DNA of 64,000 nt from a virus, in the UHGV virus genome UHGV-0028991; one strand, 5' to 3'. The notes beneath the pieces were generated by a model. It was not told where the DNA came from, did no database searches, and saw only the letters and a list, made by a program, of their open reading frames with translations. The position numbers and the translations under genes were made by a program. Position 1 is the stretch's first letter, and each line of letters starts with the position of its first letter. Positions 15,082 to 43,867 of the stretch are shown piece by piece.

Positions 15082-15110
15082 TTGACTTTTTATAATTACA
15101 TCTATATACT
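15082..15110 (+). promoter_or_regulatory. sigma-70 promoter (TTGACT, 17 nt, TATACT) for the rightward acidic-ORF/RNAP operon
   Basis: aTTGACTttttataattacatctaTATACTtag lies about 30 nt upstream of the GAGGAGG RBS of the 15140 ORF; it is divergent from the 15034 promoter. Confidence 0.55.
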
Positions 15111-15139: not shown

Positions 15140-15301
15140 ATGCGGTTTTATTCCGATAAGTCGCTTGAATTTGAAGAAGAATGGCTCAAAGCAAGAAGGT
15201 CGCGGCTTGAAACAACACCAGAAGAAATTGATTTTGACCTTGATTACTTTGACATTATAGATGATTTGGGCGATGATATGTATGACGCAGAGGAGGGCTG
15301 A
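15140..15301 (+). CDS. 53-aa highly acidic protein (MRFYSDKSLEFEEEWLKARRSRLETTPEEIDFDLDYFDIIDDLGDDMYDAEEG)
   Basis: GAGGAGG RBS; not in the ORF track (under 60 aa); sits directly upstream of the RNAP-like gene and is translationally coupled to it. Confidence 0.5.
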   Translation: MRFYSDKSLEFEEEWLKARRSRLETTPEEIDFDLDYFDIIDDLGDDMYDAEEG

Positions 15302-15303: not shown

Positions 15304-17871
15304 GTGCCTCTTGAAAAATTTCATTACATCTATTCAATCGGCACAGACGCATTATATACGCCCGAAGAAAAAGAAGTTCATAAAAAGCTCGTTAAGCTAT
15401 ACAAAATAAGAAAAAGGTGGAATTCCGACACGCAGAAATGGCGAAAAGCGTGTGTAAACCGCGTTATAAAGAAGTACAAGGCAAAATTGACCGAGCTTTT
15501 AGACAGGTCTTTGGAGCAGGACATTCACAGGACGGTTGACCCAAATTGTCTGAAAGACAAATTTGTTATCAATCTATTCGATTCTGAATTGACTCGTGCA
15601 TTGAATATGCCTGATTATCAGCTTAGCGATGAGTTGATAATGGTGAACGTGTATTTCTTCCAAGTGCTGAAGAGCATAATTTTTAATGGCTTTATATTGA
15701 ATGGTGAGAAATATGTATTTTATACGGCGTCGGCAGGGCAGATTCGCACAAAGCGGATGATTGCAATAAAAGAATCCTCTTATAAGAGAATTCAGGGGCG
15801 ATTGTTTTGTGGGCTGACGGTTGACAAGATAAATGTGCTGGGTGGCATCAATTCAAATAAATTTGCTGCTTATGCAGCTCTCACAAATTCTGCCACGGAC
15901 CAATGGGACGGCTTTGATATTCGTCGGGCAATAGTTGTCGATGATTTTGAAACAAAATTTTCAGCGCTTGTTGATTACATCAATTATGAGACATATGAGG
16001 TCAATCGCAAAACAATGGATGTTGACATCCCGTGTACAGATGGTTGGGGTATTGTTGATGGCGAGATGACGAGAATGTGCCGGGCACCATGGATTAAGGG
16101 CTTGCTTACACAGTTTCCTTTGCAACAGTGGCTAAGAGAAGAATGCCCGCATGATAAACGGACTGTCAAAGATGCTTGGGGCAAAGAGCACAATCTTGTC
16201 GAAGAAAACATTAAGGTTATTTTCTGCTTGAGCCAAATGAAGCTGAAAAAGTTCTATTCAAGTTGGGACGAATATTGCGGCGAATTTGAGAAGAACGGAT
16301 GCACAGTCAATTACTGCAACATGGAAGAGGAAAACATAAAGTCCTCTCGAATCAATTATCAGATGCTTCAGCAATTGTCCTCTATTACGCAAACCGAAAT
16401 CGACAGGCTTGTGAGACGGTCAAACGAGGACATTGAGAAAATCGGCGTTGATTATCGCACAACAATGAGGCTGCTTGGTGCAGACGATTGGAACAAGGAC
16501 AAGAGTAGCTTACAGGAAGCGTTGAATATTTATCCAGAATTGTTCAGAGACGAGTATTCAAAAGAAATTCTTCGGCAAACAAAGAAAAGCTTGGTTAAGC
16601 AGGCAAAGGCGGGCAAGGTTAGAGTAAATGGCAAATATTTGTTTGTTGCGCCGAATCCACTTCCGTTCTTGCGTTGGATGACGACGGGCGAGAAAAGCCC
16701 ATATGATGAGTTGGCGGATGGGGATGTGTATACAAATCAATTTTCCACCGATAGCGAATTGATGTTATTGCGGTCGCCGTCTCTTGGAAAAGAATGGGCA
16801 ATTAAGAAAAACAGGCGAAACGAATATTTAGATAAGTGGTTGGGTCAATCAAAATGCATTTACACAAGTAGCTATGACACTGTAAGTAAAATGCTGGCGT
16901 TCGATTGCGACGGTGACAAATTATTAGTAATTAAAGATTCCAACCTACTTAAAGTTGCAAAAAGAACAATGGATGGCGTTGTTCCGCTTTACTACGAAAT
17001 GAAAAAGGCGCAAGGTGGAGAATTAACGCCCGAAACAATATACCGTGGAATGTCGCTTGCTTACACATCGGGCAATATAGGTCCGATAAGCAATTTAATT
17101 ACAATTGTCCATAATAACGATGAGGAAAACAGAGAAGAAGCCGACCTTGCTATCAAATGGCTAACAATGGAAACAAACTTCCGAATTGATGGCAGCAAGA
17201 CACTATTCTTTTTAACACGACCGAATTTTGCCGACAAAATAATCAAGAAACACACAAAATCAAAGTTGCCAAACTTTTTCATTTATGCCAAAGATAAAAT
17301 GTATGACCCGAAACATCCTGAGAAATCACAGGTCGAGCCGCCCAATCAATCTGCAATGAACAGAATTGCGGCGGCTATTGTTCCGAGCAGATTAAAGTAT
17401 AATAAAAATTTAGGGCAACTTGATTATCGTATGCTTATGAATGTCGATGCGGGATTTATGATAAGTGATAATTGCCAAGCAATTAAATCCTACGATTATT
17501 GGCAGATGCGGGTTGGAACAATTGAAGTGCCCGAGAATGTATCTGCGGACGAGGATTTGTATATTTACAGAAAAATTCGCACACAGATACTCAATGAGTG
17601 TAGGTGGGATTTAGATTTCGTTGTAAATTCGCTTGTTGCATACTTATACACTGTTCGTCCGAACAGTCATAAAAAAATGTTGTGGGCATGCTTTGGCGAT
17701 GTGATTGTAAGAAATTTGAAAAATAATACAAAAGACCTTGGGCAGATTTGTCCGATTTGCGGGCGGCGATTCAAAGCAAAAGGCAACAACAAAGACAAGC
17801 AAATTGTGTGTTGTGCCGAGTGTAAAAACAAGTGGGATTCGGCAAGACGACACGACAGGACAGACGAATAA
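15304..17871 (+). CDS. putative YonO-like (RdRP-fold) single-subunit RNA polymerase, 855 aa
   Basis: AFDCDGDKLLVIKD matches the DxDGD catalytic motif of cellular RdRP/QDE-1-fold polymerases and of phage YonO. The protein is large and has a C-terminal Zn-ribbon (CPICG...CAECK). It sits at the head of the late-gene block. Confidence 0.45.
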   Translation: MPLEKFHYIYSIGTDALYTPEEKEVHKKLVKLYKIRKRWNSDTQKWRKACVNRVIKKYKAKLTELLDRSLEQDIHRTVDPNCLKDKFVINLFDSELTRALNMPDYQLSDELIMVNVYFFQVLKSIIFNGFILNGEKYVFYTASAGQIRTKRMIAIKESSYKRIQGRLFCGLTVDKINVLGGINSNKFAAYAALTNSATDQWDGFDIRRAIVVDDFETKFSALVDYINYETYEVNRKTMDVDIPCTDGWGIVDGEMTRMCRAPWIKGLLTQFPLQQWLREECPHDKRTVKDAWGKEHNLVEENIKVIFCLSQMKLKKFYSSWDEYCGEFEKNGCTVNYCNMEEENIKSSRINYQMLQQLSSITQTEIDRLVRRSNEDIEKIGVDYRTTMRLLGADDWNKDKSSLQEALNIYPELFRDEYSKEILRQTKKSLVKQAKAGKVRVNGKYLFVAPNPLPFLRWMTTGEKSPYDELADGDVYTNQFSTDSELMLLRSPSLGKEWAIKKNRRNEYLDKWLGQSKCIYTSSYDTVSKMLAFDCDGDKLLVIKDSNLLKVAKRTMDGVVPLYYEMKKAQGGELTPETIYRGMSLAYTSGNIGPISNLITIVHNNDEENREEADLAIKWLTMETNFRIDGSKTLFFLTRPNFADKIIKKHTKSKLPNFFIYAKDKMYDPKHPEKSQVEPPNQSAMNRIAAAIVPSRLKYNKNLGQLDYRMLMNVDAGFMISDNCQAIKSYDYWQMRVGTIEVPENVSADEDLYIYRKIRTQILNECRWDLDFVVNSLVAYLYTVRPNSHKKMLWACFGDVIVRNLKNNTKDLGQICPICGRRFKAKGNNKDKQIVCCAECKNKWDSARRHDRTDE

Positions 17872-18034
17872 AAATTCTATTTTTGTCGCGGCTGAAATTA
17901 GCCCGTAAATCAATTATTATATGAATGTTCAAACATCGGGCGTTCAAAACAAGACTATTCACTATGGGAAGAAGCCCATTTTGGACGATAAAAATTATGC
18001 CATTTGTGGCATTTAAGAAAGGGGTTCAATACAA

Positions 18035-18289
18035 ATGAAAATTAACTGGAAGGTCAGACTGAAGAACAAGTATTTTTGGTTGACGATTATTCCTGCCCTG
18101 TTCCTTTTGGTCGGTCAGGTGCTTAGAGCGCTTGGCATTGATTATGATACGGACGCGGCGAGTGCGGCTGTGGTTGATGTTATCAATGCTATCTTTGCTC
18201 TTCTGTCCGCATTTGGTGTTGTGGTCGATATGACTACGCAGGGCATTAGCGACAGCGACAGAGCGCTGACTTACGACGAGCCTAACTAA
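18035..18289 (+). CDS. holin-like two-TM membrane protein (84 aa)
   Basis: MKINWKVRLKNKYFWLTIIPALFLL: the N-terminus and the two hydrophobic helices resemble phiLC3/Phage_holin_1-type holins. Confidence 0.45.
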   Translation: MKINWKVRLKNKYFWLTIIPALFLLVGQVLRALGIDYDTDAASAAVVDVINAIFALLSAFGVVVDMTTQGISDSDRALTYDEPN

Positions 18290-18300
18290 CGAGGTGTTGA

Positions 18301-19494
18301 ATGAAACGGAAAAACGGAGAATCGTTAATCCAGTATGCGGGGAGAGCTACTGATGCTCTCTCCGAAGGATTGATTGATTATAATGAATGGGCAGGGGCAG
18401 TCGTTGGAGACGGCGACATGTATGCCCGTGAAAATTTAAGAAGATGCAGTGTGTTCTTCAATCAATTTGTTCAAAATGTTAGAAATGATGTAATTGAAGG
18501 ATCTGATGAAGATGTTGACGAGCTGAGAGATGCCACAGACGCGCTTATTAAAGAGCGCAAGAAAATCGAGACGGCAAATCTTGAGCACCAAGAATATTTC
18601 AGAAAGGTTGCAAGGCAAGAGCTTCTGACGGAACAGATTGAAGAAGCAATTGGCAAGTTGCCGAAGATTCAGCCCGTTCACATGGATTATACCTATCCTG
18701 CTGAAACAACAGGGCTGTTGATTATTTCTGACGAGCATTTTGATTCGACCTTTGAAATTAAGGGGCTTTACGGCGAGACCGTCAATAAGTATGACAAAGA
18801 TGTGTTCAAGACACGAATGTGGCATTTGCTTGCAATGATGGAAAACGACCGCTTTGATTACGACCAGTTGTTTGTGGTCAGTGCGGGCGATGCCGTTGAG
18901 AACATTCTGCGCATGAGTTCGCTTCAGAAGTTGCGGCATGGAGTTATTGATTCTACTATTGAGTTTGCTGAATTTATGAGCCAGTGGCTCGTAGAAGCGA
19001 ATAAGCGGCTTGGCGTTCCGATTCGGTTCGCCATCATTTCCGGCAACCACGATGTGTCAAGAGTATTGACACAGACACCTGAATTTCCAGAAGAATCGCT
19101 TGCAAAGATTATTCATGCTTTTATGGATTTGAGGCTTGCTGATGTTTATGGCGTGAATGTCGAGCCTTACGGTGATGTATTCTTTACAAATCTTTACGGG
19201 TCTAATTTGTTGTTTGCTCATGGCGAGACGGGCGACCTTGTAAGCCTGATAAACTACTATGAAAACCTGTATAATATTGAGATTGATTGTCTGTATGCGG
19301 GACATTTGCACAGAAGCGAAACAAAGGCGGCTGGTGTCGGAGCGGTTGGAGACCGCGAAGTTATTCGTGTGCCGTCAATTTGTGGAACGGACACATACGC
19401 TAAGAAGATTCTAAAGAATTCTCGTGCGGGCGCTTACTTTGCATTGTACAGCGAGCTTGGACGAGAATTGAACAAGATATATTATTTGAATTAA
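18301..19494 (+). CDS. calcineurin-like metallophosphoesterase (397 aa)
   Basis: Phosphoesterase signature motifs ISDEHFD, AGDAVEN, ISGNHD, AHGE and GHLH; the N-terminal 120 aa form a coiled-coil extension. Confidence 0.6.
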   Translation: MKRKNGESLIQYAGRATDALSEGLIDYNEWAGAVVGDGDMYARENLRRCSVFFNQFVQNVRNDVIEGSDEDVDELRDATDALIKERKKIETANLEHQEYFRKVARQELLTEQIEEAIGKLPKIQPVHMDYTYPAETTGLLIISDEHFDSTFEIKGLYGETVNKYDKDVFKTRMWHLLAMMENDRFDYDQLFVVSAGDAVENILRMSSLQKLRHGVIDSTIEFAEFMSQWLVEANKRLGVPIRFAIISGNHDVSRVLTQTPEFPEESLAKIIHAFMDLRLADVYGVNVEPYGDVFFTNLYGSNLLFAHGETGDLVSLINYYENLYNIEIDCLYAGHLHRSETKAAGVGAVGDREVIRVPSICGTDTYAKKILKNSRAGAYFALYSELGRELNKIYYLN

Positions 19495-19498
19495 GTTT

Positions 19499-19531
19499 GA
19501 AGAGCGGGCTTTCTCGCTCTTCTTTCTTTTG
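19499..19531 (+). terminator. rho-independent terminator
   Basis: GAAGAGCG-ggctttct-CGCTCTTC stem followed by TTTCTTTTG. Confidence 0.6.
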
Positions 19532-19556
19532 CAATTGAATAAATGGAGGTGGGGCG

Positions 19557-20447
19557 GTGCCGACAGCAAAAAAGAAAGCTCCGACCAAAAGCATTAGGAC
19601 GGATAGCAGGAATGTGCGGCTGTGCATTGCCTGTGGGTCAAGAAAGCCAATAAGCGATTTTTACTCAACGACATCCGTTCCCAACATGCAATTTTTTGTG
19701 TGCCGCAGGTGTGGCAAAAGATTACTTAAAGACCACACAGATAAGGTAGAAAAGCCGATGGCAGCACTGTGGCTTGTTTTGGCGCAAATGGGCGTACCGT
19801 TCATTTTAGAGGCGTGGTACGCCGCTTCGGAAATGTATGAAAACGACAAAACGGGTGATTTAATTACATTCTACTTGATTTCGCTTGCTAACTTAAATCG
19901 CGTATATGAGGGCTTTTGGCAATCAGATGCCATGTTGTCCGACATGATAAAGACGGGCGTTGGTGGCGAAGTTAAGGATATTGACCGCCATCTCGCAGAC
20001 GCAAACAAGTATAGAGCGCGTTGGGGCGATTATACAGCCGATGATTGGGATTGGCTTGAAAGAGAATATTTAGACTATACGCGCGACCTCGAAGCCATAT
20101 CTGTTTCGGCGGAAAAGGCATATAGGTCTTTATGCAAATGCAATTTGCGCTTTAAGAAAGAAAGCGAGGCAGGCGAAGAAACAAAATCTACAACTGATGA
20201 AATCCTGAAATGGATGAAATTGTTGCGCATAGATGATTTCAGAGACAATACAAAATCGGACGAAGATAGATACATAGACCACTTGGCATGGAAATTTGAG
20301 AATACTGAGCCTGCTGAATTGACGGATGAGGAGCGGTATAAGGATGTTAAGGGCTATGAGAAAATATATAATGATTGGATGCGGTCAATGCAGAATATGA
20401 TTGCGGGGACGAAGAGCTACCCCAATATTCCTAAGGAGCAGTTGTAA
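19557..20447 (+). CDS. putative terminase small subunit or DNA-binding packaging protein (296 aa)
   Basis: GTG start after GGAGGTG RBS. N-terminal Zn-ribbon (CIACG...CRRCG). Its stop overlaps the start of the large terminase exon 1, which is the usual small-terminase position. Confidence 0.4.
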   Translation: MPTAKKKAPTKSIRTDSRNVRLCIACGSRKPISDFYSTTSVPNMQFFVCRRCGKRLLKDHTDKVEKPMAALWLVLAQMGVPFILEAWYAASEMYENDKTGDLITFYLISLANLNRVYEGFWQSDAMLSDMIKTGVGGEVKDIDRHLADANKYRARWGDYTADDWDWLEREYLDYTRDLEAISVSAEKAYRSLCKCNLRFKKESEAGEETKSTTDEILKWMKLLRIDDFRDNTKSDEDRYIDHLAWKFENTEPAELTDEERYKDVKGYEKIYNDWMRSMQNMIAGTKSYPNIPKEQL

Positions 20448-21331
20448 TGCCGACCGCAAGAGAAAACGAACAATTCCGCAAGTCCGAAAATGTCAAAAAG
20501 TGGATAACTTATTATCGCAGGAATTGGGACTTATTTGCTGAAGAAGTTCTTGGCATTAAGCTATATCCTGTGCAGAAGCTGAAATTGCACATGATAGGTG
20601 TTGCCGACGAATATTGGGACTTTTCGTCTCGTTCAACGGCGAAGTCTTTTATTGTTGGTGTTGCCGCATTTTGTGCAATGAGTTTATATCCGCATTCAGA
20701 AATTGTTGTTACATCATCTTCTATCCCGCAGTCTGCAAGACTTGTAAGAGATAAGATGATAAAAGAAATCATTAAGAAATATTCGCCATATTTGAAGTAT
20801 TTGTATGAGAAGGGCTATTTGACAGTTAAAATGCTTGATGAGGGCGTTTTCGTCTTAACGAACACATTAAATGAATCAACGACAACGGTCGCTGTGTGTT
20901 CTGAAAATGCTCGTGGTATGCGTTCCACATTTACGATATATGAAGAGACGCGATTGCTGAAGAAGTCAATTCTCGACTCTGTATTTGAGCCGATGGGGCA
21001 CGAGCGTCCTGCGCCGTTTACACTTGACCCTAAGTATAAAACAGACAGGTGGATAAAGGCGGCAAAATCTTGCTATATTTCATCTACTCGGTATGAGTGG
21101 GAATGGTTTATCAGAGAATACAGAAAATGCGTTGAGGGCTATTATACATCAAAGCACGAGAAGTACATTCCTATGGCAGAGGACATTTATACTGCAATTC
21201 AAGAAGGAAGCCGAACATGGGCGGACTATCGAAAGGCAAAGAAGAAAATGTCCAAAGCGGATTTGAAAAGGTTCGCATTAAACATATTGAATTGCTGGAA
21301 TACCCTTAGAGTTTTATCAGCTACAACATAA
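20447..21331 (+). CDS. terminase large subunit, exon 1 (ATPase domain, 294 aa)
   Basis: Deviant Walker A FSSRSTAKSF (PBSX-type GRGSGKS analogue), Walker B TFTIYEE. The ORF ends with an in-frame stop exactly where intron-like sequence begins. Confidence 0.6.
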   Translation: MPTARENEQFRKSENVKKWITYYRRNWDLFAEEVLGIKLYPVQKLKLHMIGVADEYWDFSSRSTAKSFIVGVAAFCAMSLYPHSEIVVTSSSIPQSARLVRDKMIKEIIKKYSPYLKYLYEKGYLTVKMLDEGVFVLTNTLNESTTTVAVCSENARGMRSTFTIYEETRLLKKSILDSVFEPMGHERPAPFTLDPKYKTDRWIKAAKSCYISSTRYEWEWFIREYRKCVEGYYTSKHEKYIPMAEDIYTAIQEGSRTWADYRKAKKKMSKADLKRFALNILNCWNTLRVLSATT

Positions 21332-22547
21332 GCATGAAATAAGGCTAAGTGTGATATGCGAGAAAATGATAGAAATTGGGCAATCAGCAGCGAAGCCTCG
21401 AATAGAGGAACGTTCAACGACTATCCCGCAAGGGAGTACACAACAAGCGATTGGTTGTGGAAGTGGTATGCCTTTGCACAAAAGCAAAGTGAAGATATAG
21501 TCTTATCTGCGCGGAAACGCGCAGTCTTTCAAAAAAATGAGAGAAACGAGGAGTAGCGACCTATGCTTAAAAGAGTAAATGGGGGACAGCAAGTTGCAAA
21601 TTGTTTTTGTTTGTCTGCAAACAAACAAATTACCCCATTTGTTCTTGAATAATAATCTTTGTTGCAGGAAGGATTTTATAGCATGAATATTTTTGAGGTT
21701 AATGATAAAAATAAATTCTCTTTTAGTTGTATTTATTTATGGCAAAATCTAATAAATGGGAAGGTTTATGTTGGGCAGACGGTGGATTTTTATGCCCGCA
21801 TGAAACAATATTTACGCGAAGACACAAGTAGGCGTATCTGCATGGCTATTAAAAAGTATGGATTTGATAACTTTAGTGTTGAAGTGTTGGAAAGAGACGT
21901 GTCGCACCAAAATTTAACACAACGCGAGCAGTATTGGATAGATTTTTATGATAGTGCCAACGAAGACGTCGGATACAACATATGTCCGGTAGCGGAAAGC
22001 ACAAGAGGATATCACCACAGAGAAGAAGACAAGAAGAGAATGAGCGAAATAGCCAAAAAACGTTTCAAAGAACACCCAGAACAAATAAAACGCGGGAAAG
22101 AGAATCACATGTTCGGCAAAAAACATTCCGAAGAGACAAAAAAGAAAATAAGCCAAAGTATAATGGGCAACCAAAATGTAAAAGGCAAAACATGGAAGCT
22201 TTCGGAAGAAATATGTCGTCGTAGGTCGGAGAGGATGAAAGGTAAGAGGAATGGAGTGGGGCACAAATGTCCAGAAAGCGTAAAAGAGCATCTTAGAAGA
22301 TATAATAAAAATCGAATCTGGACAGAGGAGATGCGAGAGCAATCGCGGATTGCACATCTTAACATTGGCGGGAAGAAACTGATGTGTGTCGAAACGGGAG
22401 TCACTTATGAATCCGTGGCTGAAGCGGGTCGTGCCTTGAACAAGGACCCGTCCTCAATTTCTAAGTGTTGTCGCGGGCAACAACGAATCGCATATGGATT
22501 TCACTGGCAATATATATAATTAACCTCAAAAAAAATAGTTTAAAAAA
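21332..22547 (+). mobile_element. group I intron in the large terminase gene carrying a GIY-YIG homing endonuclease gene
   Basis: R-like element GTTCAACGACTATCC at about 21412-21426 and S-like element GAAGATATAGTCTTA at about 21491-21505 (the two strands of P7). P/Q-like AAATTGGGCAATCAGCAGCG at about 21381-21400. The homing endonuclease ORF lies downstream of S; boundaries are approximate. Confidence 0.6.
21683..22519 (+). CDS. GIY-YIG homing endonuclease (intron-encoded)
   Basis: CIYLWQNLINGKVYVGQTVDFYARMKQY is a GIY-YIG motif. NUMOD3-like repeats GKKHSEETKKKIS and HKCPESVKEHL. C-terminal NUMOD1/HTH-like VAEAGRALNKDPSSISKCC. Confidence 0.75.
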   Translation: MNIFEVNDKNKFSFSCIYLWQNLINGKVYVGQTVDFYARMKQYLREDTSRRICMAIKKYGFDNFSVEVLERDVSHQNLTQREQYWIDFYDSANEDVGYNICPVAESTRGYHHREEDKKRMSEIAKKRFKEHPEQIKRGKENHMFGKKHSEETKKKISQSIMGNQNVKGKTWKLSEEICRRRSERMKGKRNGVGHKCPESVKEHLRRYNKNRIWTEEMREQSRIAHLNIGGKKLMCVETGVTYESVAEAGRALNKDPSSISKCCRGQQRIAYGFHWQYI

Positions 22548-23528
22548 ATGTTTTCAATGGAGATGGAAAATGAAACACAGGGTAGTCCCGAAGGTGCATT
22601 CTTTAGCCTAAAGAATTTTAAGGACAATCAAGAAATTCCAGAGGCATATGTTCCGCCTACCGATACACAAGTGTTGGCGAACACAAAGCCGCCGTTCAGA
22701 GAAAAACAAGCGGACGAAATACGGCTTGTCGGCGTTGACTACGCATTTGCGAACACAACATTTAAGACGGGATACGGCAACGATAATACAATTATTGAGT
22801 GCTGGTCGGCTGTCTGGAAAAACGGTCGGTTCATTCGTAGTCTTGAATATATGGAACAATGGCCCGCATCGGACAGTACAGGCGCACAATGGCGCGTTCG
22901 TGAGCTGTTTTGGGACTATAATGCGGACTTCATTGTAAACGACCTTAGAGCAGGCGGAGAAACACTATATAACCTTATGACCGAAAAAAGGACGCATCCA
23001 AGGCGCGGCTATATGTGGGATTCACGAGGATTGACAGTCGCTCAGAATTTTAACTATCACCTCGTAACAGAATCAAAGCTTGCCGACTTGCGTATGCGGA
23101 CGGTCGATAAGGATGCTGTTCCGTGTATTATTCCTGCTCAGGGCTCGGCACAAAAGAATGGTGTTTGGTGGCTTGCACTTAGAAAGCATCTTGAATGCAA
23201 TGACATAAAGATGCTTATATCTATGGCAGACAAGCAGCAAGAGCTTGAAGATTCGGGCGAGTATTTCAAATTGACCTCAGAAGAATTGGCAGATAAGCTT
23301 GCCCCTTATGGCGAGACAGACCTGCTTATTCAGGAGGCAATCAAACTTAACACAGAAATAAAGGGCGATAACTTATATCTTAAAGAAGACAACAAGGCGA
23401 CTAAAGACCGTGTTGTTGTTATGTCTTATGTCAACATTGTAATTGATAAAATCGAAATGGAATGGAATAAACGCCTGACCAATGACGATGAAGATTATGA
23501 TATTGACGATTTACAACTTGTATATTAA
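22548..23528 (+). CDS. terminase large subunit, exon 2 (RNase H-like nuclease domain)
   Basis: IRLVGVDYAF is the typical nuclease-domain motif with a catalytic Asp. The reading frame is open from 22539. Together with exon 1 it gives a large terminase of roughly 620 aa. Confidence 0.6.
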   Translation: MFSMEMENETQGSPEGAFFSLKNFKDNQEIPEAYVPPTDTQVLANTKPPFREKQADEIRLVGVDYAFANTTFKTGYGNDNTIIECWSAVWKNGRFIRSLEYMEQWPASDSTGAQWRVRELFWDYNADFIVNDLRAGGETLYNLMTEKRTHPRRGYMWDSRGLTVAQNFNYHLVTESKLADLRMRTVDKDAVPCIIPAQGSAQKNGVWWLALRKHLECNDIKMLISMADKQQELEDSGEYFKLTSEELADKLAPYGETDLLIQEAIKLNTEIKGDNLYLKEDNKATKDRVVVMSYVNIVIDKIEMEWNKRLTNDDEDYDIDDLQLVY

Positions 23529-23549
23529 CGGACAGAAAGGAGGTGCGGT

Positions 23550-25118
23550 GTGAACGGAAAAGAAAGGCTTGAAAGAGAAGAGCTTGAGGACATTATAAAG
23601 TTTTCTGAGGGGCTTGCCTTTATGGATTCTAATTACTATTCGCCATTTTTATCAAATGAGCTTTTGCAGAATTTGAACACAATTAAGGGCGTGCCGTCTT
23701 ATGATGCCATTCAAAAGGCATTGGTTGATTTTAATTCGTGTCCTGAAAATCTGCAAATGTATAATGAGTTCGCGGCTCAATTCAACATGATATTCAGGCG
23801 CACCCTGTATTCTTATGTAAATTCTTTGGCGCTTGATCTGTCTTATGTGTGTACAAATGCATATACAAAGGCGGACTATGAAAGCGCTGAATATGTAAAA
23901 GATAAAGCGCGGGTCGAGGACTTTCTTCTTAACTTTGATTACAAGAAAGAATTCCATAATGTCTTGATGAATGTCATGCGGCGCGAAACATATTTTACAT
24001 GGTTTCGCAAATCAAAGCCTGGTAATGGCAACAAGAAAATGCGGTATGCATTGCAGATGATGCCACAAGACAGATGTATGATTACGGGCTATTGGGAAAA
24101 GGGTTTGCTTTACTCAATGGACATGACATACTTCATGCAGCCGGGCGTTGATATTGGTGAATTTGACCCCGCTATACGCAAGATGTATGAGCGGGTTATG
24201 GAATCTCCAGGCATTGATTATAAACCGTCTGCGCCATTAAATAAGCGAACTGGCACATATGCATTGTGGGCAGATGCGTCACCTGTTCTCGGAGCCTATG
24301 CTTTCAAAATGGACCCATCAACATTTTCGCCCGTGCCGTTCTTGGCATCTTTTGTTAAGAATATTATTCGGGACGAAGAAGTTGAGCGCTTGCAATACAA
24401 TAAAGACCTGATTTCGGCATATGCAATTCTTGTCGGAACAATTCGGCTTTATGATGGTGCAAAATCCGGTGAACAAAAAGACCAGTTTGCAATTAACCTT
24501 AAACTGCTTGGGCAGCTTATGGCAAAGGCAAAGGCGGGATTCGGTTCTCTTGTTAAATTGGGGGCAATGCCTACCGAAGACAATAAACTGTTCCAGTTTG
24601 AGGATAAAAACGGCAACATGTATAAAGACCAAGTTGCGACCACTGCTGCAAGTGGCACTGGCATTAGCCGCGTCATTTATTCTACTGATAGAGTAAGCGC
24701 GGCGGAGCTTGAGGCTCAGCAGAACGAAGTTTATCAAACCATGCGCCCGATGTATGCGCAGTTTAATAACTTTATGGATTTCTTTGTTAATCAAATGACA
24801 AAGAAGTATAAGTTCAAGTTTACATTTGACGGCGCGACATATAGATATGATCGCACTCAAAGATTTGACCAAATTAACAAATTGGCAGACAGGGGCATTG
24901 TTTTGCCGCCATCTGCTTGGGCATCTGTTTTAGGGCAGAACCCCGCATTGTTTGAGGCGGCTTTGAGAGAGAGCAAGAACACTGGATGGCTTGAGCAATA
25001 TAGCCAACTTATGGTAAACATCAATACAACTTCGCAGGAATCAGAAGGTGGCAGACCGCGCGAAGAAGGAGCGGTAGATGCTGCGACCGAGGCAAGCCGC
25101 GAATTGTATGCCGATTAA
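23550..25118 (+). CDS. portal protein (522 aa)
   Basis: Size, position immediately after the large terminase, and an acidic C-terminus; GTG start after GGAGGTG. Confidence 0.55.
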   Translation: MNGKERLEREELEDIIKFSEGLAFMDSNYYSPFLSNELLQNLNTIKGVPSYDAIQKALVDFNSCPENLQMYNEFAAQFNMIFRRTLYSYVNSLALDLSYVCTNAYTKADYESAEYVKDKARVEDFLLNFDYKKEFHNVLMNVMRRETYFTWFRKSKPGNGNKKMRYALQMMPQDRCMITGYWEKGLLYSMDMTYFMQPGVDIGEFDPAIRKMYERVMESPGIDYKPSAPLNKRTGTYALWADASPVLGAYAFKMDPSTFSPVPFLASFVKNIIRDEEVERLQYNKDLISAYAILVGTIRLYDGAKSGEQKDQFAINLKLLGQLMAKAKAGFGSLVKLGAMPTEDNKLFQFEDKNGNMYKDQVATTAASGTGISRVIYSTDRVSAAELEAQQNEVYQTMRPMYAQFNNFMDFFVNQMTKKYKFKFTFDGATYRYDRTQRFDQINKLADRGIVLPPSAWASVLGQNPALFEAALRESKNTGWLEQYSQLMVNINTTSQESEGGRPREEGAVDAATEASRELYAD

Positions 25119-25134
25119 GAAGCAGGGGTAAGAT

Positions 25135-25320
25135 ATGATTATTCTTGGAAGTCCAAAAGACGATGAACTTGACCAGTATATCTGTCTCGACGGACCTATT
25201 GCGAATGGTGCACATGCCGCAGGAATCCCGCCTAAGTATAAAGACGCTGACGGCTTTCTGTGGTTTAAGCGCACTAAAAAGTTATTGAGGTTTTTAGCGG
25301 ATATTAGTTATGAGCCTTGA
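25135..25320 (+). CDS. small protein, paralogue A (61 aa)
   Basis: YICLDGPIANGAHAAGIPPKYKDADGFLWFKRTKKLLRFLADI is homologous to the product of 25917-26105. Confidence 0.5.
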   Translation: MIILGSPKDDELDQYICLDGPIANGAHAAGIPPKYKDADGFLWFKRTKKLLRFLADISYEP

Positions 25321-25402
25321 TATATTAAGGAAAGCGAAAAACATCAAAAGGTTTTATTTGGGAATATGCAAGCCGTGAGATGCTTGAATGAGGATGAATA
25401 AT

Positions 25403-25915
25403 ATGATTGTATCTAAGAATACGCAAGATGCGCTGATGGAGCTTATTAAGCAGTGTTTTGTCGAGAACCGCAAATTCGACCGCATGGTGTCTGTGCTCGG
25501 CGTCAAGTTTGCCATGAACCAAACTGCCGACCGCATTCATCATGGTATTGCACATTGGTTTCCTGCACTGAGTGACCTAATTGGCGAGCGCACGTTGGAG
25601 CGTTATAATATCGCCGTCATCTATGGCGAGACGCCAAGTGGCGCTGAGGATTATGACAGAGCCGGCGACATTATTGCTGAGGTTGAACGACGTGTCATTG
25701 ATTTCCAGATGATGTTTATGGGCGTATGCAAAATTGCGCTTGATAACAACGACATCCATGTTTATGCCGATTTGCTGGATATGTTGGAGGATGTAAATGA
25801 AATCGTCGAGCAGGTAATTTTGCTCAATGATAAGATGGTCATTTATGGCGATGAAAGAATCGGCGCTTATGACCACGATGTTCCTGACTTTTGGATTCTC
25901 AAGGAGTCCAACTAA
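25403..25915 (+). CDS. hypothetical protein (about 170 aa) inserted between the two paralogues
   Basis: GAGGA RBS upstream of MIVSKNTQDAL; no motif. Confidence 0.4.
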   Translation: MIVSKNTQDALMELIKQCFVENRKFDRMVSVLGVKFAMNQTADRIHHGIAHWFPALSDLIGERTLERYNIAVIYGETPSGAEDYDRAGDIIAEVERRVIDFQMMFMGVCKIALDNNDIHVYADLLDMLEDVNEIVEQVILLNDKMVIYGDERIGAYDHDVPDFWILKESN

Positions 25916-25916
25916 C

Positions 25917-26105
25917 ATGATTCGACTTGGCACACCTGCAGATGTGAGTAAATATGTATGCCTTGATGGCAATTTGGCGTTTATGGCGCATCATGCAGGT
26001 AACATTCCTGGGTGGAAAGATGATGATGATAGCTTGTGGTTCAAGCGCACTAAAAAGATTAAAAAGATGTTGAAGTTCTGTGCTGATAACGGCATTGAGC
26101 TTTAA
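25917..26105 (+). CDS. small protein, paralogue B (62 aa)
   Basis: YVCLDGNLAFMAHHAGNIPGWKDDDDSLWFKRTKKIKKMLKFCADN, paralogous to 25135-25320; GGAG RBS. Confidence 0.5.
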   Translation: MIRLGTPADVSKYVCLDGNLAFMAHHAGNIPGWKDDDDSLWFKRTKKIKKMLKFCADNGIEL

Positions 26106-26140
26106 TATATTTGCTATCCTTGAGGAAAGGAGGTAAGGAA

Positions 26141-27802
26141 TTGCAGAGAGAATATAACTTTGCAGTAGAGGAAATCAAGCGGATTGAATTTTCCGATTAT
26201 GACGAGCAGGAGTTCAGCATTGCCAGATTGGGCTTTATTTCTACTCGCCCTAACAGCCATGGTATTGGCATTGATGAGGATTGCTTGCGGGCATCTGCGC
26301 CGTCTGCGCTTGGTATGTGGATTGTGGCTAAGATGTTTATGGGTGATGCGACCACGCATGAAGCCGATGAGCATATTGTGGGCATGATTCCCAAAGACCA
26401 AGACATTGAGTTCGTTGAAGATAACAACGGTTATCTGCGGGCATATTGCGACGCTATCATTAGTAAGCGATATGCGGCTGATTTCTGTGAGATTTTTGAG
26501 AAAGACAATGAACGCGCAGTTAGCATCGAGGCGAAATTCACTATGAAGCCAGATGATGAAAATGAGGCCGAGTCGTTTAGTATCAAGGGTGTGACTGTGT
26601 TGGGTAAACGTGTTAAACCCAGCTGTCCTGAGAGCGATATTGCATTTGTGCGGTTCAGTGAAAGCGACGCCGAGGATTATTATCGTGCGCGTCATGGCGA
26701 TGCCGTATCTAATCTAACCAAATTTGTTGAAACGAGGAAACAATCTATGGCTGAAAAGAAATATGTATCTCATCCCATCAACACTTCTAAAGACGCCGTT
26801 TATACTGGTGAGTGGGATGGAAACAAGGCCAAGCAAGATTTGATTAAAGAGAAGAATTATAAATCTCTCGCACCAAAGGTCTGTCTCAATCTTGAGGAAG
26901 GCTGGGAGGACAGAGAGGTGACTAAGCTTGGCTACCCCGTAATGGGGTTGTTCGACGGCGAATGGCGTTATTCAACTCGTGCTCTTGCTTCTGCTTTGGC
27001 TTATGCTAAACAGAATGACGAGCAGGAGGTTTTGAATAAATTAAAAGAAATCTATGATGAATTAGATTTGAATGAAAAGGGAAAGGAGGACGATGAAAAA
27101 ATGAGCAAAGAAGTTGCATTTGCGGCTGTTGACCTCAATCTTATGTGGACGAAAATCAATGATGAGCTTCGTGCAAGAAATTATGATTGGCGTTGGTACA
27201 TTGACGGCATTTTTGAACAGGACAATAAAAAGTTCGTGATTATCAGAAATGATGACGGCGACAGATTCCGTATTAATTTTAGCTATACGGAAGATGGGCT
27301 GTTCATGGACGATGAAATGGTCAAAGTTGACATTGAGTTTGTCGAAACCGATGATATTAAGCGGTTCTCTTGCCCTGAAGAGTTCAAACATCTCATGGGT
27401 GAAGAGGGCAAGTCTGAAGATGAGCCCGACGAAAAAGACGCAATTATTATGCAGAAAGATGCCGAAATCGACGAGTTGAGAAAAGAGCTTGACGAACTGA
27501 AAGCATACAAGGCGGCGATTGAAGAAAAAGAGATTGCTAAGCGCGTTGAAGATATTTTGGATGAAGTCAAGGATTATCTTGATACCGACAAATATCAGGA
27601 ACTGCGTGCCGAGGGACTTGCTTGTGGCAAGGACGAGATTGATGCTTTTGGTAATAAGGTTAAGGCACAGTGCTTTAATGCGTTCAAAAAGGCGGCAAAG
27701 AAAGACGCAGATAAAATCTTCGCTTTCTCTAAACCGATTGAAATTCAAAAGAAAGATATGTCTACCATGAATGTATGGGACAGAATCAAAGAAAATTATT
27801 AA
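26141..27802 (+). CDS. putative prohead protease/scaffolding fusion protein (about 553 aa)
   Basis: TTG start 7 nt after AGGAGG. N-terminal globular domain, then a long acidic coiled-coil C-terminus typical of scaffolds. Lies between portal and capsid. Confidence 0.4.
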   Translation: MQREYNFAVEEIKRIEFSDYDEQEFSIARLGFISTRPNSHGIGIDEDCLRASAPSALGMWIVAKMFMGDATTHEADEHIVGMIPKDQDIEFVEDNNGYLRAYCDAIISKRYAADFCEIFEKDNERAVSIEAKFTMKPDDENEAESFSIKGVTVLGKRVKPSCPESDIAFVRFSESDAEDYYRARHGDAVSNLTKFVETRKQSMAEKKYVSHPINTSKDAVYTGEWDGNKAKQDLIKEKNYKSLAPKVCLNLEEGWEDREVTKLGYPVMGLFDGEWRYSTRALASALAYAKQNDEQEVLNKLKEIYDELDLNEKGKEDDEKMSKEVAFAAVDLNLMWTKINDELRARNYDWRWYIDGIFEQDNKKFVIIRNDDGDRFRINFSYTEDGLFMDDEMVKVDIEFVETDDIKRFSCPEEFKHLMGEEGKSEDEPDEKDAIIMQKDAEIDELRKELDELKAYKAAIEEKEIAKRVEDILDEVKDYLDTDKYQELRAEGLACGKDEIDAFGNKVKAQCFNAFKKAAKKDADKIFAFSKPIEIQKKDMSTMNVWDRIKENY

Positions 27803-27820
27803 GATAGGAGATTAAATAAT

Positions 27821-28372
27821 ATGGCTAAGAATCATGGCATTCTGATTTCCTCGCACTTGATGGCGTGGGACAATGATGCGCTGACTATGTGCGGCGTATA
27901 TGCAGACGGCGACCTTGATAATGGTCAGCTTGTCACTCTTGATGGCATTCGCAAGAATGCAACTACTGGCGCAGTGCAGGGTTACGACTATGCGGTTAAG
28001 CCCGCAACGGCTGGCGCTGATAATGTTTGGCTCGTTGAGAGCCCCGAGCTCGGTTATACGCTCGAGACGCAGATTCACGACGACCCGCGCTACTTCTACA
28101 ATGAAGCTGGCAAGCCGATGAGCCTGCGGGCTGTCATGGGCGGTGTTGACTGCTTTGAAATCACTAAAGAACTGTTTGCCGCTGGCACTCTGCCCGCAGT
28201 TGGCGACATCGGCAAGTATGTTGCTCCTGCTGCTGACGGCAAGTATGCAGCGCCCGCAGCTGCTGCTCCTGAGTCTGGCGCTTACTTCCGCATTGAGGGT
28301 CTGACGACCATTAAGTGCGGTTTTGAGGAAGTTCCCGCTGTTCTCCTGCGCTGCATGGCGAACTATCACTAA
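27821..28372 (+). CDS. hypothetical head protein (183 aa), Ala/Pro-rich C-terminal linker
   Basis: Position between the scaffold and the capsid gene; possible decoration protein. Confidence 0.35.
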   Translation: MAKNHGILISSHLMAWDNDALTMCGVYADGDLDNGQLVTLDGIRKNATTGAVQGYDYAVKPATAGADNVWLVESPELGYTLETQIHDDPRYFYNEAGKPMSLRAVMGGVDCFEITKELFAAGTLPAVGDIGKYVAPAADGKYAAPAAAAPESGAYFRIEGLTTIKCGFEEVPAVLLRCMANYH

Positions 28373-28403
28373 TTAAGAGACTTTGAAAGGAGAATATTAT
28401 AAT

Positions 28404-29444
28404 ATGCTGACGAATCAAGAACTGATTAAGTTTGCTGCTGGAAACACTGATTTCTATGAAGCAGCAATGTCTTATGTTGTAGATAAAGAGCGTTCCTCTG
28501 AGAAGAAGGGTCTGCTTCAGACCGCTTTCATGTCCGAGGTTGAGCGCAAGTCCGGCGTTGCACGCGAAGGTCTTGAGCAGGATGCGTGGATTAACCATCC
28601 GTCTGTTCAGTGGGCTGCACTTTCGATTGCAAATGCGACCGTCCGTGCAATTATTCCGCAGACCATTCTGCCGCAGTTTAACCTGTTCGCTGATATGCGC
28701 ACTGAGAACGCTGGCGATGTAGTCAAGTTCCGCGTGCCTGCAAGAGGTTACTATCTTGTGAGCAAGGGCGGTCGTTCTGAAAGAACTTCCTTTAGACAGC
28801 ACGGTTATTCCACCGATGTGACTGTTGCTCCCGAGGAACGCATTGTTACCGTTTTTGCTAAGATGTACAATGTTCTCGCAGGCAAGGAAGATATCGGCGA
28901 GATGCTGATGTGGGTTGTGGCATCTATCAACGCCGCAATGTATGGCGACGCGCTGAATATTCTGACCGCTGGTCTGGCTACCATTCCTGCAGGTGCTCTG
29001 AGCGTTACTGGCGCATTCGACATCAAGACGCTTGTCAAGATGGGCGAAACTGTGCAGTATCGTAATGGCGGCGTGCGTCCTGTATTTGCAGGTTCTGCTA
29101 CTGCTCTTATGAATGTTGTCCCGGACAGCACTTCTGGATATCGTCTGAATGTTGATGGCGAAGGCGACGGCAAGGTTGAGCTTATGAGAAGCATTATGGG
29201 CTTTGATGTGCTGAAGCTTGACAACGCTGTTGGCGCTGATGGTCAGCTCGTTCTGCCCGACAATAAGATTTATGTTGTTTCTCCGTCTCAGGACAAACTG
29301 CTGAAAGGCGTTCTGTCCACGAAACTGACGAACAGCAATGATTTCTATATGAATGCCGACATCACCAGCAACTTCACGCAGAGAATCAGCTATGCATTTG
29401 CATATGCTTCTTCTGCTTACGCTGGCGTTTACACCATTCAGTAA
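28404..29444 (+). CDS. major capsid protein (HK97-like), about 346 aa
   Basis: Position after protease/scaffold, size, and a terminator immediately after, which usually marks high expression. Confidence 0.55.
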   Translation: MLTNQELIKFAAGNTDFYEAAMSYVVDKERSSEKKGLLQTAFMSEVERKSGVAREGLEQDAWINHPSVQWAALSIANATVRAIIPQTILPQFNLFADMRTENAGDVVKFRVPARGYYLVSKGGRSERTSFRQHGYSTDVTVAPEERIVTVFAKMYNVLAGKEDIGEMLMWVVASINAAMYGDALNILTAGLATIPAGALSVTGAFDIKTLVKMGETVQYRNGGVRPVFAGSATALMNVVPDSTSGYRLNVDGEGDGKVELMRSIMGFDVLKLDNAVGADGQLVLPDNKIYVVSPSQDKLLKGVLSTKLTNSNDFYMNADITSNFTQRISYAFAYASSAYAGVYTIQ

Positions 29445-29456
29445 GTAATGCATTGT

Positions 29457-29490
29457 AGGGGCGGGCTTAATAGTCCGCTCCTATATATTT
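29457..29490 (+). terminator. probable rho-independent terminator after the capsid gene
   Basis: GGGGCGGGC...GTCCGCTCC stem with two G-U pairs, then TATATATTT. Confidence 0.45.
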
Positions 29491-29519
29491 AAGAATAAAT
29501 GGAATAAAAGGAGATAAAC

Positions 29520-30158
29520 ATGGCAGGAAAAACCAATGGGTCTAACAAGCCCAAGACTACGAACAAAACCGCCAATGACACATCTGCCCTGCTTGAAAAA
29601 CAGGTAAAGGAATTACAGTCTCAAATTGCCGCAATGCAAGAAGCGCTTAGGGCTCAGTCTGTGCCAGTTGCTTGCGAATCGCAAATAACCAAGGTGGCAC
29701 ATAAGCCGAAAGCTAAGACCATTCGATTTGTTAATCTTGTGCCCGGAACGCTTGTTCTGCGCGGCACGATGATTTGGAAAATCGAAGGACAGTTCAACTA
29801 TCGAGACTTTCTTGAGACCGAGGCAGCAATCATTGTAAACAATATGAGCGAATGTATTAGAAGCGGTAGTGTTTATATTGCTGACGCAGAATTTGTTGAA
29901 GAGCACAATCTGACCGAAGTATATAGATATTTGCTTTCTGACGAGCAGTTGTCTCATCTGTTTGAATTGGACGCAAAAAGTGTGATTGAAACATACAAGA
30001 ATTGCTCGGACTCTCAGAAGAACATCATTGAAAATATGATTCTTGAAAAAGTCTCGAATGGCGAAGAAATTGACGCGAATATTACGCAGCAAATCGGTAG
30101 GCTGTGTAAAATTGATTTCTTGGCAGATGTTGGAGCGGACGAGAACGAGGTGAAATAA
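29520..30158 (+). CDS. hypothetical head-tail joining protein (212 aa)
   Basis: ORF with AAGGAG RBS; position only. Confidence 0.35.
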   Translation: MAGKTNGSNKPKTTNKTANDTSALLEKQVKELQSQIAAMQEALRAQSVPVACESQITKVAHKPKAKTIRFVNLVPGTLVLRGTMIWKIEGQFNYRDFLETEAAIIVNNMSECIRSGSVYIADAEFVEEHNLTEVYRYLLSDEQLSHLFELDAKSVIETYKNCSDSQKNIIENMILEKVSNGEEIDANITQQIGRLCKIDFLADVGADENEVK

Positions 30159-30590
30159 TTGACCTCATTTGACACGATTGAGACCCGCGCGCTTGCAGTC
30201 ATTGAAGATTATAAGCTAAAAAAGCTATTTGATTCAAGCATTGACGGGTTTGAAAAATATTGCGATGGATTGCTTATGGTTGCGGTCCCGCAGTTCTATG
30301 AATGCTTAAAGTCTTTGCAATATAACGAGGAAGCTCGGATATTTATTGCGGACCTGGATGAGCAGGAAGTTTCTATTCTTGCCAACTTCTTTGTCATTAC
30401 TTGGTGGCAGAGAGAAAATAATAATGCTGCGCAGATTGCCTTGAAATTGAAAACTTCGCAGGCATTCCAATTTAACAGTGAAGCCCAAAACTTCAAAGAG
30501 AAGCAGAATGTTATTGATAAGCTGCGTGAAGAAAACGCAAGACAAATTAACGCATATCTTGCAGCAAATTTAGACAGCATAGATTTATGA
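30159..30590 (+). CDS. hypothetical head-tail connector protein (143 aa)
   Basis: Position only. Confidence 0.35.
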   Translation: MTSFDTIETRALAVIEDYKLKKLFDSSIDGFEKYCDGLLMVAVPQFYECLKSLQYNEEARIFIADLDEQEVSILANFFVITWWQRENNNAAQIALKLKTSQAFQFNSEAQNFKEKQNVIDKLREENARQINAYLAANLDSIDL

Positions 30591-30599
30591 GGAGGCGTT

Positions 30600-30842
30600 A
30601 TGAGCAAAGATAAAAGAGCAGACGCTTTCTATAAAATTTTGGGGCTGTTTGAAGACGCTGACACAGATGAAAAATTTGTGGCATATTTGAAGTATTTGTC
30701 GCGCCTGTGTGTAAAGTTGCGCGGGCAAGGTGATTTAGAGTCTTATGCGACCGTTCGTGGGTTACATGAAATGGGGCACGATGTTTCGCATGATACTGTG
30801 AGGGCAGTAGTCTTTCATTTGATTGGCGATAGGGAGGTGTAA
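30600..30842 (+). CDS. hypothetical small protein (80 aa)
   Basis: GGAGG RBS; position only. Confidence 0.35.
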   Translation: MSKDKRADAFYKILGLFEDADTDEKFVAYLKYLSRLCVKLRGQGDLESYATVRGLHEMGHDVSHDTVRAVVFHLIGDREV

Positions 30843-30845
30843 TGC

Positions 30846-32123: not shown

Positions 32124-32134
32124 GGAGGGGTTAA

Positions 32135-32713
32135 ATGTTTAATAGTTTAGCTGCATTGCCGCCTTCATTATACAACATTATCAATTATCTTGCAATAGAT
32201 AAATCGGTCGAAGCCGAAAATTTGTGGAAGATGCTAAAATACAACGATTATGATGCGCTGAACAAGCCAAATTTAACAACAAGTGAAAAGCTTGACATGC
32301 TTTGGCGAAGTGGTCCGCAAGAAAAGTATAGCATTTTTCTAACAAATTTGATTGAGGACGCATTACCTCAATCAAAATGTGTGTTCAAACTGTATGACTA
32401 TATGGTTCAGCCCGAGGGGGCGTATGTATCCTCTGTTATTTATGCCTTTGATTTCCTTTATGGCGGGCAAATGTCGTTGGTCGAATATAACGGCATTCCT
32501 GTTGCAAGGGGTGATGTTTTTATCAATTCCATCTTGTCCGTACTTAATGGCGTGACAATTGGCGGGGTTGGCAAACTTATGCTTGACGATGATTTATCTC
32601 GCTATTGCGGGGCAAAGTCTGTGGTCGGAAATCAAAAGACATTCACTGGCTATGTACTGTATTTGGCAACGAATATGGGCGATACAGGCATAGACGAGGG
32701 CTGCGATGATTGA
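32135..32713 (+). CDS. hypothetical tail-completion-type protein (192 aa)
   Basis: Position only. Confidence 0.3.
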   Translation: MFNSLAALPPSLYNIINYLAIDKSVEAENLWKMLKYNDYDALNKPNLTTSEKLDMLWRSGPQEKYSIFLTNLIEDALPQSKCVFKLYDYMVQPEGAYVSSVIYAFDFLYGGQMSLVEYNGIPVARGDVFINSILSVLNGVTIGGVGKLMLDDDLSRYCGAKSVVGNQKTFTGYVLYLATNMGDTGIDEGCDD

Positions 32714-43864: not shown

Positions 43865-43867
43865 TAT

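Follow-up and report, generated by a model that had tools for sequence, protein, structure and literature searches.

Which enzyme is encoded by the gene at the head of the late region of the phage genome UHGV-0028991, and from which site might it transcribe the genes that follow? The stretch of this genome analysed here, 64,000 nucleotides (nt) in length and referred to as the window, contains an open reading frame (ORF) for a protein of 855 amino acids (aa) which the initial annotation, made from the sequence alone, had interpreted as a YonO-type single-subunit RNA polymerase with a DxDGD catalytic loop and a C-terminal zinc ribbon. Homology, the invariance of the loop, the predicted fold and synteny all support this interpretation, and it is very probable that the gene encodes an orthologue of YonO in the broad sense, i.e. 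a single-chain DNA-dependent RNA polymerase comprising two double-psi beta-barrels. YonO of the Bacillus subtilis prophage SPbeta has been characterised as a strictly DNA-dependent and highly processive RNA polymerase (Forrest et al. 2017, PMC5467207). It transcribes 37 SPbeta late genes as a single operon, is essential for plaque formation and becomes inactive when its aspartate triad is replaced by asparagines (3D>3N), while its promoter and possible cofactors were left undefined by these authors (PMC5467207). Neither a YonO promoter nor a cofactor is described in the searchable literature. Thus, what is known is the YonO family, biochemically characterised in SPbeta; what is new is a divergent member from an uncultured phage. 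By analogy with SPbeta YonO, the window polymerase would be DNA-dependent, processive and dedicated to late genes. The coordinates of all features are compiled in Table 1.

Homology to YonO

BLASTP aligns the window polymerase (855 aa) collinearly and over its full length with SPbeta YonO (839 aa) at an identity of 40% (333/833 positions, residues 3-828, E = 0), thereby placing its FDCDGDK segment onto FDNDGDK of YonO. When annotated phage records were searched by tblastn, yonO of SPbeta/SPBc2 (NC_001884.1) was retrieved with an E value of 5e-164. This gene and its counterparts in phi3T, SPR and the Goe phages match the polymerase with about 40% identity over 97-99% of the length, and the homologues of Clostridium phage D-1873 and Psychrobacillus phage Perkons are 41% identical to it. 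In addition, PHROG 8308, a family lacking annotation, is matched at E 1e-213. Scans of the polymerase against Pfam, NCBIfam and the PDB sequences, as well as the comparison of a profile of 43 homologues with the PDB sequences, returned nothing beyond weak zinc-finger matches. As the curated family libraries remained silent, the identification was made via tblastn of phage records and via fold searches instead.

The family is large, with more than 2,100 homologues in a large protein database at E <= 1e-5. The closest of them, 98% identical, is a cluster that comprises 357 member sequences and derives from the assembly of a public sequencing run; the next ones share about 61% identity. An alignment-based scan which covered one genome per species located family members in prophages of Paenibacillus, Bacillus, Brevibacillus, Lachnospiraceae and Oscillospiraceae and, furthermore, on many contigs of gut metagenome-assembled genomes; a scan of genome contigs with peptide patterns derived from the single protein retrieved no relatives, these patterns being too specific. 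At the nucleotide level the window has no match in the phage collection except for an intron fragment, and it therefore belongs to an uncultured phage of the gut metagenome which is only distantly related to SPbeta.

Of the 43 homologues, which share 51-61% identity with the window polymerase, 41 match the Pfam family PF05183, named RdRP for RNA-dependent RNA polymerase, with a best E value of 4e-19. The window polymerase itself gives no match to PF05183 at E <= 1 and does not reach the curated threshold, so that its tie to this family is transitive and structural. The scans assigned it neither to the T7-like RNA polymerases nor to the primase-polymerases nor to the beta and beta-prime subunits of multi-subunit RNA polymerases, and a match to an unrelated family such as a primase-polymerase or a structural protein, which would have spoken for a different function, was not found.

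Predicted fold and active site

Two alignments served to evaluate residue conservation: A1, which consists of the 43 homologues mentioned above, and the wider A2, which includes the window polymerase, SPbeta YonO and homologues from the gut clade, Paenibacillus and Dorea. The segment AFDCDGDKLLVIKD, residues 532 to 545 of the polymerase, contains the DxDGD loop recognised in the initial annotation. Asp534, Asp536, Gly537 and Asp538 are invariant in A1 as well as in A2, including SPbeta YonO, with whose triad the loop aligns. Because the motif is invariant among the homologues it is not a chance loop, and the ORF, whose boundaries had been given exactly, is full-length and uninterrupted. A ribosome-binding site, GAGGAGGG, is located 6 nt 5' of the start codon. 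The four C-terminal cysteines are invariant in A1, bearing out the zinc ribbon, and three of the four remain invariant once SPbeta YonO is included (A2); the Pfam zinc-finger and zinc-ribbon matches to this region are weak (E 0.03-0.1). The window polymerase shares with YonO the DxDGD triad, the R-x-P and R...K motifs and the C-terminal cysteines.

Eight residues are invariant across two-barrel RNA polymerases, corresponding in Qde1 to D709, R738, K743, R962, P964 and D1007/1009/1011 (Ruprich-Robert and Thuriaux, PMC2919709). In the window polymerase D214, R260, K265, R490, P492 and D534/536/538 are invariant in A1 and A2. Their spacings agree with those of Qde1, the arginine and the lysine being separated by 5 residues in both proteins and the R-x-P motif being followed by the triad after 42 residues, compared to 43 in Qde1. 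Judged by motif and spacing, not by superposition, these residues most likely represent the eight residues of Qde1.

The AlphaFold2 model, built on the alignment of 43 sequences, has a mean predicted local distance difference test score (pLDDT) of 86.2 and a predicted template modelling score (pTM) of 0.76. A Foldseek search of this model against the PDB gave 19 significant matches, every one of them to RDR2 or QDE-1 (E 2.6e-19 to 1.5e-12), and the next match followed at E 0.68. In fold comparisons the model scored 16.0 with maize RDR2, 15.6 with P74 gp62, 14.2 with QDE-1, 13.6 with gp66 of the crAss-like phage phi14:2 and 10.3 with the P23-45 gp96 RNA polymerase. P74 gp62 (8f5m), labelled “envelope glycoprotein gp62” by its depositors, is an entry which we take to be an RNA polymerase. 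The predicted structure, hence, matches two-barrel RNA polymerases only, RDR2 and QDE-1 in the first place followed by the phage enzymes, and the double-psi beta-barrel whose absence would have argued against a YonO-type enzyme is present in the model.

Position at the head of the late block

Downstream of the polymerase gene the ORF map reveals a plus-strand block which is unbroken from a 163-nt spacer (17872-18034) to about 59.1 kb. Its first gene encodes a holin of the Phage_holin_1 family (Pfam PF04531, E 4e-28), and a YonJ-type exonuclease/metallophosphoesterase, a YonG-like protein, terminase, portal and structural proteins are encoded further 3' on the same strand, as identified by Pfam, PHROG and tblastn. 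The initial annotation had described holin-like, phosphoesterase, packaging and structural genes in exactly this arrangement and had taken it for the layout of a late-transcription polymerase. This view is borne out by tblastn searches with SPbeta late proteins, which show the block to be syntenic with SPbeta yonO, yonJ, yonG, yonF ... yomI. As in SPbeta, the polymerase gene follows a small ORF and heads a same-strand late block with yonJ, yonG, yonF and portal genes. In the 98%-identical relative the gene order recurs over 14 kb, and the clade of about 60% identity shows it too. By analogy with SPbeta, the late block is presumably transcribed by the window polymerase. Full-length homology, the aspartate triad, the eight invariant residues, the fold and the operon position all agree with what characterises the YonO family.

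The two phages differ in what immediately follows the polymerase gene. In the window the next gene encodes the holin, and the only HU homologue found, which had been noted in the initial annotation, is situated 13 kb away on the opposite strand instead of directly downstream. The 98%-identical relative also carries a holin gene in this slot, and members of the nearest clade (about 60% identity; L084, L086, L088-L092) possess two HU-like genes after the polymerase gene, resembling yonN in SPbeta. Moreover, the spacer of 163 nt contrasts with 1.7 kb harbouring a non-coding RNA in SPbeta, a stretch which has no counterpart in the window.

A recurrent DNA motif in the spacers behind polymerase genes

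Among 68 non-redundant loci (within L003-L092), about half contain an 18-nt element with the consensus TAATnGTCTnTAAGGGAA, located 34-201 nt 3' of the stop codon of the polymerase gene. It comprises the universal core [A/T]A[A/T]GGG[A/G]A, preceded by clade-specific bases, and was first noticed as a recurring T-A-(A/T)-GGG-(A/G)-A on reading the spacers which follow yonO homologues. The test set consisted of the 68 non-redundant 300-nt downstream regions, 68 matched upstream regions and 68 shuffled regions. TAAGGGA occurs in 21 of the 68 downstream regions compared to 1/68 upstream regions, and TTTAAGGG in 14/68 compared to 0/68. Expectation-maximisation converged on the consensus AttGTCTaTAAGGGAAaaAa (12.5 bits), and at a score of at least 14 bits the element is found in 35/68 downstream regions and in none of the 68 upstream or 68 shuffled ones. 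For cross-validation the loci were halved, and expectation-maximisation run unseeded on one half or the other recovered the same motif, which at a threshold of at least 12 bits was detected in the held-out halves in 16/34 versus 0/34 and 17/34 versus 1/34 regions. When both strands of the loci (1.44 Mb) were searched, 79 matches reached at least 13 bits, 45 of which are located on the sense strand 0-300 nt after a polymerase stop codon, an interval representing 0.8% of the searched space.

The upstream half of the element varies by clade: Lachnospiraceae have TTTTGTGyGTATAAGGGAA, Paenibacillus and Bacillus TAATnGTCTyTAAGGGrA, and the gut clade closest to the window GAAACAAATAGGGAAGCAT. Such a pattern would be expected from a co-evolution of polymerase and promoter. 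The position of the element is retained regardless of whether the next gene encodes HU, a holin or another protein, and in some clades an inverted repeat surrounds the GGG core.

Other functions of the element were considered. It does not behave as a Shine-Dalgarno sequence since the median distance separating its GGG from the next start codon with a ribosome-binding site in front is 86 nt, and only one of 37 cases falls within 15 nt; furthermore, the upstream control regions do hold ribosome-binding sites, yet TAAGGGA occurs in 1/68 of them. An intrinsic terminator was rejected as well, as the element lacks a T-run behind it and terminator prediction for the plus strand gave nothing in the spacer. 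A conserved hairpin in the RNA leader is not a general feature either (mean folding z -0.64, with 10/39 leaders under -1.5; the leader of the window reaches -1.7). As leader folding is not generally unusual, the conserved feature is the primary DNA sequence.

We regard the chances as even that the element represents a class of YonO-type promoters, which would be recognised without a sigma factor, would direct initiation at the G run and whose variants would have arisen by co-evolution in the manner of T7, T3 and SP6. The candidate in the window, CTATTCACTATGGGAAGAAG, is situated within the 163-nt spacer, 67 nt 5' of the holin ATG, and is identical in the 98%-identical relative. Together with its clade relatives AATAGGGAAG and ACTATTAGGGGAG, it is its position and not its score that suggests a promoter function. 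Twelve plus-strand sites of the window reach at least 8 bits. The best match of the window to the position weight matrix (PWM; 13.6 bits) is TTTTGTGTGTTGATGGGAGG at 11223-11242 on the plus strand. It lies at the left edge of a very AT-rich, ORF-poor region of 1.25 kb (11176-12428) which abounds in imperfect direct and inverted repeats and sits where minus-strand genes give way to plus-strand genes. No Rfam family matches this region, which may be an origin or a regulatory region, and a search of 10.8-18.3 kb of the window with Rfam at permissive thresholds gave nothing.

SPbeta likewise carries a related short element 3' of the polymerase gene. In the SPbeta locus analysed (L001, 20.4 kb) the exact pattern TAATNGTCAT occurs twice when both strands are searched, both copies being in sense orientation and at most 0.9 kb after yonO. 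The copy at L001 11613-11634, GATAATCGTCATAAGGGAGA, falls into the stretch separating yonO from yonN. It is the homologue of the element in other Bacillus loci; its PWM score is low because of a spacing change of 1 nt. The second copy, TAATAGTCATTTATGAGGG, occupies L001 12403-12425. The primers used to map a YonO-dependent start (P_YonO) by primer extension are listed in a supplementary table, and the published start corresponds to genome position 2225998 of NC_000964.3 (PMC5467207). We located these primers at L001 12283-12306 and 12498-12524. The copy at 12403 is central in the interval bracketed by them, its distance to the extension primer (5' end) being about 105 nt, with the start site placed to the interval only; the link of the element to the mapped SPbeta start is circumstantial. 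A position-specific motif shared by prophages of Bacilli and Clostridia and by gut phages provides a concrete and cheap hypothesis of how these polymerases locate their starts, which can be tested with existing SPbeta reagents. Between yonN and yonK of SPbeta (L001 13381-13446), the Rfam small RNA family DUF3800-VIII sRNA gives a match of 47.5 bits within the 1.7-kb non-coding stretch, which corresponds to the unannotated non-coding RNA transcribed by YonO according to Forrest et al. (PMC5467207).

Upstream region and small acidic ORF

The divergent intergenic region 5' of the polymerase unit (15022-15139, 118 nt) contains two promoter-like sites in a consensus scan (Table 1), and the scanned region yields 14 promoter-like sites compared to 9.6 +/- 3.1 expected from shuffled sequence, which is not clearly above expectation. 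According to the initial annotation the polymerase is transcribed from its own promoter. A sigma-A-like consensus match facing the gene does exist; it precedes, however, a 53-aa ORF whose stop codon is located 2 nt 5' of the polymerase GTG. Since this ORF stands between the consensus match and the polymerase gene, the latter comes second in what is probably a unit of two genes.

The 53-aa ORF, which occupies the slot of SPbeta yonP, matches no Pfam, PHROG or NCBIfam family and shows no significant similarity to YonP or to the small-protein family of the gut clade. Many related loci (L005, L006, L039, L043, L046, L084, L086, L088-L091 and the Paenibacillus loci) have a small ORF of 31-95 aa that adjoins or overlaps the start of the polymerase gene, and its product is usually strongly acidic. 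The small ORFs of the gut clade form one family (MIW[EY]EMSYN... plus an acidic tail), those of Paenibacillus share WQDxYYDGxID, and for the window ORF and SPbeta YonP the correspondence is one of position only. The small acidic protein may be a functional partner or cofactor of the polymerase or an inhibitor of the host RNA polymerase.

Proposed mechanism and alternative explanations

We propose that transcription by the sigma-A RNA polymerase of the host would start at a promoter in the divergent intergenic region near 15.1 kb and cover the small acidic ORF as well as the polymerase gene. The newly made polymerase would hold two catalytic Mg2+ ions by means of D534/D536/D538 and D214, with R260, K265 and R490 serving nucleoside triphosphate (NTP) and RNA contacts. 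It would then initiate in the spacer behind its own gene, with CACTATGGGAAGAAG as the candidate site, and read the late block of about 41 kb (lysis, packaging, head and tail genes) processively from end to end in a single unit. The late promoter itself is suggested by comparative sequence analysis only.

Several observations weigh against this scheme. The polymerase falls under every Pfam and NCBIfam threshold, and with an identity to YonO of just 40% its template specificity could differ. The first late gene of the window encodes a holin and not HU-like proteins as in relatives, and no strong terminator is present between the polymerase gene and the late block, making read-through by the host enzyme possible. 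With 9.9 bits the window element is a weak match. Finally, the best SPbeta copy of the element is located upstream of yonN, and the start was mapped about 800 nt further on, with a spacing variant only.

The initial annotation had likened the protein to eukaryotic-type RNA-dependent RNA polymerases. This comparison holds for the fold and for the motif shared with QDE-1 and RDR; as to the template, the enzyme should be read as DNA-dependent like YonO. That it copies phage or host RNA, for instance in regulation or counter-defence, is very improbable. Such a role would fit the match of the homologues to PF05183, the records of the phages Perkons, TR-TP1 and PMBT24, in which homologues are labelled “RNA-dependent RNA polymerase”, and the nearest solved folds, RDR2 and QDE-1. 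This label, however, derives from the name of the Pfam family and not from any assay, the window gene holds YonO's place at the head of the late operon, and YonO, the sole member of the family to have been assayed, strongly prefers DNA templates and is needed for late-gene transcription (PMC5467207). Annotation as a late-gene DNA-dependent RNA polymerase would, hence, be preferable to “hypothetical” or “RNA-dependent RNA polymerase”. Still more remote is the idea of a decayed or repurposed YonO relative devoid of polymerase activity, with e.g. a structural or DNA-binding role. While the window polymerase misses the Pfam RdRP threshold which its homologues pass, it retains every catalytic and NTP-binding residue, all of them invariant, its ORF is complete and uninterrupted, and the 357 member sequences represented by the 98%-identical copy argue for an actively maintained gene.

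A more serious competitor, which we nonetheless regard as doubtful, leaves the polymerase YonO-like and assigns its specificity to a partner such as the small acidic protein, an HU-like protein or a host factor, in which case the element would be the site of this partner or an RNA leader or processing element. Whether YonO needs additional factors was left open by Forrest et al. (PMC5467207). Small, usually acidic ORFs next to the polymerase gene are widespread, the element precedes HU-like genes in SPbeta and in most relatives, and the inverted repeat found around the GGG core in some clades would also suit this explanation. On the other hand, the small ORFs do not form one detectable family, those of the window and of SPbeta failing to match the gut-clade profile; leader folding does not generally exceed that of shuffled sequences, and the element keeps its place whatever gene comes next.

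Comparison with known polymerases

With QDE-1 and RDR2 (PF05183) the window polymerase shares the single-chain two-barrel architecture and the D...R....K / R.P...DxDGD signature. It differs from them in its smaller size, in an identity of only 12-15%, in falling under the Pfam threshold and in its phage late-transcription context, in which, by analogy with YonO, a DNA template is expected. No sequence similarity to phi14:2 gp66 (6vr4), P23-45 gp96 (8h2n) or P74 gp62 is detectable. While gp66 and gp96 are packaged into the virion and transcribe early genes, YonO-type enzymes are made after infection and transcribe late genes. The family represents a minimal single-chain relative of the cellular multi-subunit RNA polymerases.

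T7-type polymerases are functional analogues only, in that one phage protein transcribes the late genes processively. Their right-hand, Pol I-like fold is unrelated, and the window polymerase has no Pfam or fold match to them. The candidate promoter is T7-like in style, a short AT-rich specificity region leading into an initiating GGGA; the T7 promoter reads TATAGGGAGA.

Further features of the window

Table 1. Features of the window and their coordinates.
Feature	Position	Strand	Details
YonO-family single-subunit two-barrel RNA polymerase gene (very probable)	15304..17871	+	GTG start, 855 aa
First (beta-like) barrel, predicted active site	15943..16098	+	D214 (15943-15945), R260 (16081-16083), K265 (16096-16098)
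Second (beta-prime-like) barrel, predicted active site	16771..16938	+	R490/P492 (16771-16779), metal-binding loop AFDCDGDKLLVIKD (16897-16938) with D534/D536/D538
C-terminal Cys4 zinc ribbon	17749..17823	+	C816, C819, C836, C840; cysteine conservation
Candidate YonO-class late promoter/initiation element	17955..17974	+	GGG at 17966-17968; position and clade relatives
Same-strand late block	18035..59119	+	holin (18035-18289), YonJ-like exonuclease, YonG-like protein, split terminase, portal, head/tail, split tape-measure
Candidate host sigma-A-type promoter	15082..15110	+	TTGACT-17-TATACT, 10/12 consensus match; faces 53-aa ORF and polymerase
Strongly acidic 53-aa ORF	15140..15301	+	net charge -13, own GGAGGA ribosome-binding site; yonP slot of SPbeta
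Perfect TG-extended sigma-A consensus	15062-15034	-	TTGACA-17-TATAAT; faces divergent T5orf172/SNIPE gene
T5orf172/MUG113 gene (SNIPE-type GIY-YIG-like nuclease)	13861-15021	-	long coiled-coil N-terminus; divergent from polymerase unit
HU homologue	1842-2105	-	tblastn of SPbeta proteins
Group I intron in terminase large-subunit gene	21255-21524		Rfam; exons ~20447-21265, 22548-23528
GIY-YIG/NUMOD homing-endonuclease ORF	21659-22519		inside terminase intron
Group I intron in tape-measure gene	38410-38731		Rfam

The divergent T5orf172/SNIPE gene which neighbours the polymerase unit is also present in the 98% and ~60% relatives.

While the polymerase gene of the window is uninterrupted, several relatives carry insertions of about 1 kb (overall range ~0.3-1.3 kb) at highly conserved sites of this gene (L039 2568-3594; L075 ~11594-12415 and 12773-13061; L004 2296-3269; L046 3518-4809). 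L039 and L075 are split at residues 531-534, within the catalytic FD|CDGD loop, and L004 and L046 at residues 185/186. SPbeta-like phages of the tblastn set are split as well (yonO_1/yonO_2, GIY-YIG). Rfam, run on these interrupted genes at gathering thresholds, detects no group I intron; a divergent intron and a homing-endonuclease cassette are candidates for the inserted DNA.

The multiple group I introns reported for the window in the initial annotation are confirmed by Rfam, which finds two, one in the terminase large-subunit gene, where the interruption spans 21255-22547, and one in the tape-measure gene. A 94-nt piece of the terminase intron shares 87-92% identity with non-coding DNA from phages of Enterocloster and Bacillus cereus.

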